Below are positions 23,231 to 25,039 of a stretch of DNA of 63,645 nt, one piece after another. The DNA is taken from positions 10,566,797 through 10,630,441 of the forward strand of contig JARFYF010000046.1 of NCBI GenBank assembly GCA_030265395.1, written 5' to 3'. The position numbers and the translations under genes are program-made. Each line of letters opens with the position of its first letter. Position 1 is the first letter of the stretch. The DNA comes from Rhina ancylostomus (taxonomy: Eukaryota). Below the pieces are notes generated by a model. It saw only the letters and a list, made by a program, of their open reading frames with translations, did not search any database and was not told where the DNA came from.

Positions 23231-23884
23231 ACACCTTTTTGAATGTAATGACACACACAGCTGTAGATCTCCTGTGAGTCCAGAATTTCATTATATTAAC
23301 ATGGTCAATAATGTTGCCATTGTAAGTTAAACTGGATCTTTGTGTTAACATGTTTAGGGAACTAATACTTCCAAAATAGTTCAAAGTGCATACCTCATAG
23401 TCAGATGACAGATTTCACTCTTGTACTTTTGTCATTGGCAATGGTCCATTGGTTATTTTCTATTCAAATGACATCATTGTTCCATCATATTTTGAAGACT
23501 GATTTTAGTGGCTTGTGGATTCATAATACCATCCATCTGACTTTAATAGGCAGTCCCTAACAAATAAATTAGCTGGACCACAGGTAAGAGATCACTTACA
23601 ATGCTTATAAAACTAGAAGTGACTTTAAAACCAATAGTGCTAGACGTTTGAAAAATGAAGTAAATTCATCAGGGATGTGATCTAATGTACAAAGAATTCA
23701 TAATCATCATAAAATGAAGCTACAGTCAAGCTGAGTTGTGAACTGCTTGGTCCCATTGCAATTTTTATGAAAGCTCTTGAGATTTCCAAGATCATTCTAA
23801 TCAGTTAACAATTGTCTGGAAAGTGGTTTACGGTCGATTTCCAGTTTCACTTAAGCAAGTAATTTCTAAATTAGCATAAGCATT

Positions 23885-24655
23885 GACCATAAGACATAGG
23901 AGCAGAATTAGGCCATTTGGCCATTGACCCGGCTCCGCCATTTGATCATGGCTGATTTATTTTTCCTTCTCAACCCCATTCTCCTGCCTTCTCCCCGTAA
24001 CCTTTGATGCCCTTACTAATCAAGAACCTATCAACCTCCGCTTTAAATATANNNNNNNNNNNNNNNNNNNNNNNNNNNNNNNNNNNNNNNNNNNNNNNNN
24101 NNNNNNNNNNNNNNNNNNNNNNNNNNNNNNNNNNNNNNNNNNNNNNNNNNNNNNNNNNNNNNNNNNNNNNNNNNNNNNNNNNNNNNNNNNNNNNNNNNNN
24201 NNNNNNNNNNNNNNNNNNNNNNNNNNNNNNNNNNNNNNNNNNNNNNNNNNNNNNNNNNNNNNNNNNNNNNNNNNNNNNNNNNNNNNNNNNNNNNNNNNNN
24301 NNNNNNNNNNNNNNNNNNNNNNNNNNNNNNNNNNNNNNNNNNNNNNNNNNNNNNNNNNNNNNNNNNNNNNNNNNNNNNNNNNNNNNNNNNNNNNNNNNNN
24401 NNNNNNNNNNNNNNNNNNNNNNNAACATGTGACTAATAAAGATATTTTATCTTATCCTTTTATTCTGAGGCTGTGCCCTCTGATCAGACTCTCACTCTAC
24501 TGGAAACGTCCTCTCCACATCCACTCTATCCAGGCCTTTCAATGTTTGGTAGGTTTCAATGAGACCCCCCCTCATCCTTCTAAACCCCAGTGAGTACAGG
24601 CCCAGAACCACCCAACGCTCCTTGTGCATTAATCCTTTCACTGCCGGGATCATTT
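23885..24655 (-). mobile_element. CR1 3' end, interrupted by a gap and a SINE tail at 24424-24458
   Basis: MIPAVKGL...LGLYSLGFRRMRGGLIETY...LDRVDVE and IFKAEVDRFLISKGIKGYGEKAGEWG. Confidence 0.9.
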
Positions 24656-24692
24656 TTATGATATTGAGTATAGGTACGTTGGGACCAATAGT

Positions 24693-24872
24693 GCCGGCGA
24701 TCACCGACTGGTGCAGCGCCGTCTGTCCCTCGGGCCCGATCGAGTTGACGTTGAAGCGGCAATCGGCCACGTTCTGCAGCAGTGACTGCAGCTCCCATGT
24801 GTTGTGGCGCTGCGCCACCTCCTGGAACACGCGCTGTGGGGCAGCGGCCGGAGACATCTCGGCCTGGCTCAC
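24693..24872 (-). pseudogene. NRARP: Truncated NRARP (Notch-regulated ankyrin repeat protein)-like copy, N-terminal ~60 aa, start codon read as GTG
   Basis: (V)SQAEMSPAAAPQRVFQEVAQRHNTWELQSLLQNVADCRFNVNSIGPEGQTALHQSVIAG matches recalled NRARP MSQAE..QRIFQEAVRKGNTQELQSLLQNMTNCEFNVNSFGPEGQTALHQSVIDG; the C-terminal ankyrin repeats are missing. Confidence 0.92.
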
Positions 24873-25039
24873 CACTCTGGTCTCCTGCTCTCCACCCGGG
24901 ACTGGCACCGGGGGCGGGGGGGGAGAGCGGGGTGGGGGCCGGGCAGCTCACTTGATGCTGGGATCTGTGGTCCCACTCCTCCTGCATGCCTCCAACTCAA
25001 AACCCATATTGAGTCTGTTCAACCTTAACTGAGTATATT

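Follow-up and report, generated by a model that had tools for sequence, protein, structure and literature searches.

How the 5' half of NRARP, a Notch-pathway gene, came to lie just upstream of the 3' end of a CR1 retrotransposon is the question raised by this locus, which sits in a window of 63,645 nt (the whole stretch of DNA analysed here; scaffold C46:10566797-10630441 of the 2.2 Gb host assembly). Judged by the NRARP proteins closest to the piece, the host is a cartilaginous fish. A preliminary description made from the sequence had proposed that CR1 captured NRARP mRNA by template switching and that the resulting in-frame fusion might be expressed as an ankyrin-truncated variant. In the accessible parts of the literature, template-switch chimeras are described for U6 with L1, L2 and RTE elements, with target-site duplications (TSDs) of 1-9 bp in platypus and one unconfirmed U6-CR1 case in turkey (PMC4476161), and tripartite chimeras for a fungus and mouse (PMC2104539). 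Template switching has further been proposed for a tRNA-CR1 SINE (PMC5729268) and for SINEU heads (PMC4494074), and zebrafish L2-clade LINEs produce 5-bp TSDs and flank-templated extra nucleotides at their 5' ends (PMC4245944, PMC4760211). Stringent recognition has also been described (PMC3747384, PMC5470649); for CR1 it is reported to concern the element's own 3' end, a constraint considered to restrict the making of retrocopies (PMC5470649). A 2026 preprint, in its accessible part, reports 14,081 retrocopies in cartilaginous fishes and ascribes non-mammalian retroduplication to CR1 or Tx1 from element content.

Read along the minus strand, the locus passes from unique flank through a GC-rich leader, NRARP codons 1-60, a linker and CR1 to a nested repeat with a gap and the CR1 tail. 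Direct observation covers the pieces and how they are oriented, as well as the repeats and the decay; the features are as follows (window coordinates).

25006..25014, plus strand: 9-bp direct repeat ATATTGAGT, identical to the linker start and including ATTGA (25008-25012); candidate outer TSD.
24960..25007, minus strand: probable further NRARP 5' UTR (weak), where the back-translated catshark UTR peptide P0047 aligns over 25006-24971.
24873..24959, minus strand: NRARP 5' UTR, homologous to the skate-type UTR through its match to the N-extension of P0002.
24693..24872, minus strand: NRARP codons 1-60, decayed, with the start ATG now GTG and 11 private amino-acid changes.
24492..24857, minus strand: 121-aa chimeric ORF, probably incidental, without a Pfam family at E≤1 and absent from 27 protein hits.
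24662..24692, plus strand: 31-nt linker, of which approximately 24663-24685 is an apparent CR1-B snippet, antisense to the unit.
24455..24661, minus strand: 5'-truncated CR1 (CR1-A), C-terminal part of ORF2, with 17 differences at 200 sites from the family majority base.
24052..24454, no strand assigned: nested repeat and 372-N gap within CR1; the first 31 nt of the repeat are visible (24454-24424) and the gap spans 24052-24423.
23885..24051, minus strand: CR1-A ORF2 end, 3' UTR and tail, with 8 differences at 162 sites from the family majority base.
23882..23886, plus strand: ATTGA at the CR1 3' end, overlapping the tail by 2 bases; candidate TSD.

The assignment of the leader and codons 1-60 to NRARP on the minus strand was borne out by two matches. 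The top PDB match is human NRARP 6py8_B (E=1.4e-19), and the in-frame translation of the leader over 24959-24882 matches the UTR-derived N-extension of the skate-type protein P0002 with a score of 60, the maximum of 1000 shuffles being 50. Farther upstream, 24971-25006 aligns with the back-translated catshark UTR peptide P0047 at p=0.04 (200 shuffles), an alignment noticed after the fact, and with the skate peptide at p=0.995. Private amino-acid changes affect 11 of the 60 codons, as compared with 0-9 pairwise differences among eight elasmobranch proteins, and M1, A19, V20, R21, G23, R26, M35 and F45 are invariant in all eight of these shark/ray NRARP proteins. The piece comprises 137 nonsynonymous and 43 synonymous sites, with seven codons ending in A or T. 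Its richness in CpG relative to the flanks, pointed out at the start, was confirmed (observed/expected 0.93 for the NRARP codons, 0.18 and 0.28 for the flanks) and is expected of a CpG-island gene of moderate age; CpG-type losses are visible in A19V, R21Q and R26W. All three Met codons of the piece have become GTG and several changes create CpG, neither of which needs a special cause because A>G and T>C are also common among CR1 copies. Elsewhere in the window, a host-gene scan of 127 of the 136 stop-free frames of at least 78 aa, a method blind to short exons, yielded one RT fragment with a Pfam match. Older minus-strand CR1-type fragments lie upstream of the locus at 26368-26960 and about 25800-26000, with one RVT_1 match at E=1e-5.

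Whether the fusion could serve as a protein was considered next to this decay. The open NRARP-CR1 frame exists as a 121-aa ORF from the ATG at 24857, which is codon 6 (Val to Met), but the true start reads GTG and the frame stops before the CR1 ORF2 end, at a frameshift TGA (24494-24492) that follows a small deletion. The chance of such an open frame is approximately 4% (a phase factor of 1/3, the 9 of 27 CR1 copies that stay open across 54 codons, and factors of 0.57 and 0.62 for linker and NRARP part), which is low and the sole point for function, yet the finding was picked partly for its open frame. A dN/dS of roughly 0.5-0.6 assumes that the parent codons end in G or C, the parent DNA being missing. 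Ending at codon 60, the piece is devoid of the third ankyrin repeat (W85, A92), the site of the NOTCH1-RBPJ interface according to the accessible part of a preprint (bioRxiv 10.1101/645937). With its start codon lost, its private changes and its Notch-binding repeat absent, the piece does not have the attributes of a functional retrogene, and the expressed ankyrin-truncated variant envisaged in the preliminary description was not upheld. A functional fusion protein is highly improbable, the 121-aa ORF is probably incidental and the locus is likely a decayed, dead pseudogene; very likely dead, it adds nothing new on Notch signalling.

The NRARP piece is truncated at its 3' end, has no poly(A) and contains no intron junction; since it crosses no intron and is tailless, RNA and DNA templates cannot be told apart from the piece itself. 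The 3' half of NRARP was not found in the window extended by 50 kb on each side, nor elsewhere in the assembly, and intact nrarp was not found in the assembly by DNA search, with a 55-aa piece or with a full-length stingray protein (110 candidates scored, three matches). NELFB and EXD3 are the neighbours of NRARP in human, and five of seven NELFB-family matches, together with the sole Mut7-C match (E=7e-4), lie on scaffold C56 rather than C46. There, a 1028-N gap starts at C56:30,809,406, about 29 kb past the Mut7-C exon; no other gap edge in the 200 kb read is as rich in CpG as its upstream edge, with 22 CpG in 150 nt, and on the downstream side of the gap the C-terminal extension of a whale-shark NRARP gene model finds a match (E=0.005). 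On the basis of this one downstream match, the CpG-rich edge and the synteny with human, native nrarp is probably located at C56:30,809,150-30,812,600, with its coding region in the gap. The upstream edge also carries CCAAT boxes, and one TTCCCACG at C56:30,809,144 is what we take to be a CSL-type site. The two NELFB-family matches off C56 (C84:31221817-31221945 and C7:21143155-21143298) are possibly misplaced exons or partial copies.

The 5' region of this presumed parent showed no significant similarity to the catshark N-extension (p=0.94), and its visible upstream (promoter) and downstream parts had no match at the NRARP-CR1 locus. The search for the parent that had been advised left the intact gene unfound and revealed no identity to the presumed parent's visible flanks outside the transcript. 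Because those flanks are without a match here and the 3' half is absent nearby, the piece appears to be a transposed fragment that stays inside the transcript. A DNA fragment of nrarp captured as filler during repair or CR1 integration would also cross no intron and carry no poly(A); the confinement of the piece to the transcript, its sharing of the CR1 orientation and the missing promoter match make this origin very unlikely. In two stingrays there is a second NRARP-like copy (P0003, P0045), decayed though full-length, whose first 60 residues show 4-6 changes; these are probably independent copies since none of their changes is common to the fragment described here.

The element downstream, which we take to be CR1 from its family's ORF2 end and tail, was expected to follow NRARP in the same orientation. 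Its orientation held, starting at 24661 and ending in an intact tail at 23885, while its continuity did not, as another repeat occupies the sequence from 24454 and is followed by the 372-N gap. In other CR1-A copies about 100 nt separate the two parts that flank the nested repeat and gap here. The first 24 bases of the nested repeat (24424-24454) occur in three near-exact copies in 700 kb, counting this one. CR1-A here is 75-90% identical to family copies (75-88% over the part of the sense piece compared with CR1-B), and its tails are sparse, with five in 700 kb of unselected DNA. The 300 nt upstream of 16 other CR1-A copies contain 0-8 CpG, against 25 here, a sample too small to judge how frequent capture is. 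Divergence from the family majority amounts to 25 of 362 sites (6.9%), the medians of the copies being 7% and 9%, and the NRARP piece has at least 12 nucleotide changes (counted from the 11 codons) at 137 nonsynonymous sites, or about 9%; by these counts the two pieces appear of similar age and not separable.

Sequencing runs were compared over 23300-24700. Run X1 was identical to the flank over 611 bases, whereas contigs of X2 and X3, from other organisms that differ by about 2% and 3% in the flank, reach 26-28 bases into the CR1 tail; this overlap, below the 31-letter bridge rule, hints that CR1 predates the X2 and X3 splits. No empty orthologous site was seen among the run contigs over this interval. 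Among the data sets listed as containing the sequence there was none of RNA; X2 and X3 had zero coverage of the linker bin and X4 merely patchy coverage of the flank, blanks that carry no evidential weight. The same data bear on a misassembly in which stray reads of the parent nrarp were joined to a repeat. The parent coding region is missing from the assembly, the scaffold has many gaps and no listed contig is shown bridging 24661/24662, all of which would suit such an error. Yet the private changes and the missing start codon indicate that the piece is not the parent, it runs gap-free into unique flank, and 0.64 of the words sampled from 24480-25100 are present in X1, possibly the very sample that was assembled, which also has coverage of 24663-24700, leaving misassembly with hardly any likelihood.

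The linker between the two pieces, given as about 35 nt, was announced as resembling an inverted CR1 snippet; an inverted CR1 motif is indeed present, but the linker is 31 nt long and its motif is not of the sense piece's family but of another CR1 family. When a 21-nt pattern resembling the linker, shaped after the CR1-B family had been seen, was sought in the genome, it gave 371 exact matches, with none for the control. Single hits of the linker snippet in an unbiased BLAST over some 430 kb (E 1.7-6) are not significant, so that the CR1-B assignment rests on the pattern count. Thirty CR1-B copies were fetched and were mostly 57-79% identical to the sense CR1-A piece, and the CR1-A family has a different sequence at the place homologous to the snippet. 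The linker thus reads as an antisense snippet of a second CR1 family, CR1-B. Twin priming was ruled out, as the inverted linker scored 10-18 against the 600 nt upstream of 27 CR1-A copies (shuffle mean maximum 21); on one RNA it is excluded because the snippet comes from another CR1 family than the sense piece. Nine bases of the linker recur in the inverted left flank at 23747, and a wholly flank-templated linker was set aside since the CR1-B match covers more bases with a single template. A pattern with the exact spacing of the linker and a DNA search with the junction each matched only this locus in the assembly. Sequence on the left side of the CR1 tail agrees with the CR1-B motif (six window lengths, p 0.02-0.09), unlike the bases now before the linker, and the left flank prolongs the motif with the two bases conserved at -1/-2 (C in 28 and G in 27 of the 30 copies); this fit favours CR1 having inserted into older DNA. 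A comparison of 28 CR1-A loci gave one (L045, minus strand, near offset 228) whose CR1-A tail is antisense and immediately follows the same CR1-B motif.

Short repeats mark the junctions, and all tests on them were made after the sequence had been seen. ATTGA occurs at 23882 (overlapping the tail), at 24663 (the linker start) and at 25008, and therefore brackets both the whole unit (23882/25008) and CR1 alone (23882/24663); it is found six times in 23700-25300, the others being at 23923, 25094 and 25226. The longer ATATTGAGT, at 24661 and 25006, gives the linker start and the apparent 5' edge of NRARP 9 bases in common and brackets NRARP plus filler, its left copy overlapping the CR1 5' end. 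A shared stretch of at least 9 bases with the linker was found in 1.25% of 2000 random 151-nt windows and was reached by two of the four flank orientations tested. Repeats of at least 5 bp occurred in 12.5% of 72 mismatched end pairs (chance of such 5-mers approximately 8-12%). A repeat of this length was present in one of nine usable CR1-A copies (from 26 tails), a small survey, as was another that covered three copies. If the 5' edge is at 25007, ATTGA would bracket the whole unit and the linker would open with a copy of the target.

Taken together, we favour one CR1 insertion that captured NRARP mRNA through several template jumps, to which we give a probability of roughly 0.5; this reading is more likely than any single rival, yet unproven. 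It is preferred because landing within about 35 bp is rare, the ages agree and the 9-bp repeat is put to use. By arithmetic from the tail density, a same-orientation landing at that distance would occur by chance at about 1e-4 per site, and the NRARP piece stays within the transcript, shares its orientation with an intact-tailed CR1 and is of compatible age. In addition, the catshark UTR alignment starts at 25006, adjoining the 9-bp repeat. From the observed pieces we infer a single event, an RNA template and the following order of jumps. Reverse transcription would have been primed on the tail of CR1-A where an ATTGA had been nicked, and about 470 nt of CR1-A copied, after which a first try at joining the target would have copied 7-9 target bases. 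Through that shared target sequence the enzyme may have jumped to CR1-B, copying some 20 nt from an antisense template, and then onto NRARP mRNA at codon 60/61, copying about 315 nt back into the 5' UTR; the join to the target would have fallen at about 25007, so that each end of the unit has an ATTGA. At a later time a further repeat would have entered CR1 and the whole unit decayed. The template switch onto NRARP mRNA first proposed therefore stands as the best single reading, with the reservations that the join is indirect, that the linker derives from a second CR1 family and that CR1 by itself is likewise enclosed by a 5-bp repeat.

Against a single event, the indirect join needs an antisense template of another CR1 family, short repeats are common by chance, and the 5' edge depends on the p=0.04 alignment without support from the skate peptide. 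Separate adjacent events are possible, at somewhat less than even odds. In one version, an NRARP retrocopy lost its 3' half by deletion beside an antisense CR1-B remnant, and CR1-A later inserted there with its own 5-bp duplication. The ATTGA copies around CR1 alone, the extension of the CR1-B motif into the left flank by its conserved bases and the same geometry at L045, where CR1-A is inserted antisense into CR1-B, favour this history, and the full-length copies in the two stingrays indicate that second NRARP copies arise without the present structure. It would however require a deletion and an insertion within about 35 bp at a low family density and leave the 9-bp repeat at 25006 to chance; the left-flank CR1-B match is far weaker than that of the linker, the ages of NRARP and CR1 are not separable, and we consider it unlikely. 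Two nested insertions at one site, with NRARP and about 23 nt of filler arriving as a tailless or repair-type insert with a 7-9-bp repeat before or after CR1-A, would explain all three ATTGA copies as well as the 9-bp repeat at 24661/25006. Tailless 3'-truncated mRNA copies with TSDs are described in the accessible part of PMC5322556, but that source links them to L1 and, outside mammals, reports them from anole only; as two independent hits within the same 5-9 bp would also be required, such a course seems more doubtful still.

With one insertion and several jumps as the preferred reading, the locus would represent a modest variant of known LINE chimeras, judging from the accessible parts of the sources compared. 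As in the U6-L1/L2/RTE chimeras and the fungal MINE (PMC4476161, PMC2104539), a cellular RNA copy stands 5' of a same-strand, 5'-truncated LINE with an intact 3' end, and the TSDs are short or unclear, as in L2 chimeras (PMC4476161); here, in contrast, an mRNA fragment is cut at both ends, the LINE is of the CR1 clade and an antisense snippet of another family lies between. By the description of chimeras in PMC2104539, the 5'-truncated LINE with its 3' end and the common orientation of both parts are present, whereas the parts are separated by the 31-nt linker and the 5' RNA is incomplete, ending at codon 60 and short of the presumed parent's visible 5' start. The locus would operate like these chimeras, yet it is not filed as a canonical bipartite chimera because direct joining and a full-length 5' RNA are lacking. 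A CR1 reverse transcriptase switching onto cellular RNA is likewise proposed for the tRNA-CR1 head of PittSINE (PMC5729268), where the tRNA head founded a SINE family, in contrast to the single decayed mRNA piece with one genomic match seen here. The TSD of about 5 bp and the flank-copied bases at the 5' junction resemble those of zebrafish L2-clade LINEs (PMC4245944, PMC4760211), although here about 345 nt, for the most part mRNA, would be extra sequence. Tailless retropseudogenes (PMC5322556) are similarly 3'-truncated and devoid of poly(A), but they are L1-driven and stand alone, whereas this copy abuts CR1. Partial retrocopies mediated by LTR elements (PMC5131818) also involve partial mRNA, template switching and short shared sequence; those are flanked by LTRs on both sides, as opposed to a non-LTR CR1 on the 3' side only.

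Among papers surveyed by title and start of abstract, mostly outside subscription journals, none reported an mRNA-CR1 chimera or an NRARP pseudogene; supplementary chimera lists may bear on novelty. A broader idea is that the CR1 RT, although considered strict for its own 3' end, primes on its own tail and then switches template to protein-coding mRNAs, and that this regularly gives rise to the many partial retrocopies of sharks and rays, with this locus a multi-jump fossil; we hold this to be speculative and rather improbable. A proven mRNA-CR1 chimera would be a route around the 3'-end rule, and the signature it predicts could be screened for, namely mRNA pieces without a tail that lie directly upstream of CR1 tails on the same strand. 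The interest of the locus is that capture of this kind may be a way in which genomes rich in CR1 acquire gene copies.

Elasmobranch nrarp DNA was also sought in a metagenome scan, which returned one teleost-type gene (L114) whose UTRs match neither locus above shuffles. A prokaryote-genome scan gave no NRARP-level match among 24 loci, with a best identity of 52%. P0028, which the genome scan did not return, is a ray NRARP that UniRef lists under the bacterium Kangiella spongicola as well, which is probably due to contamination.
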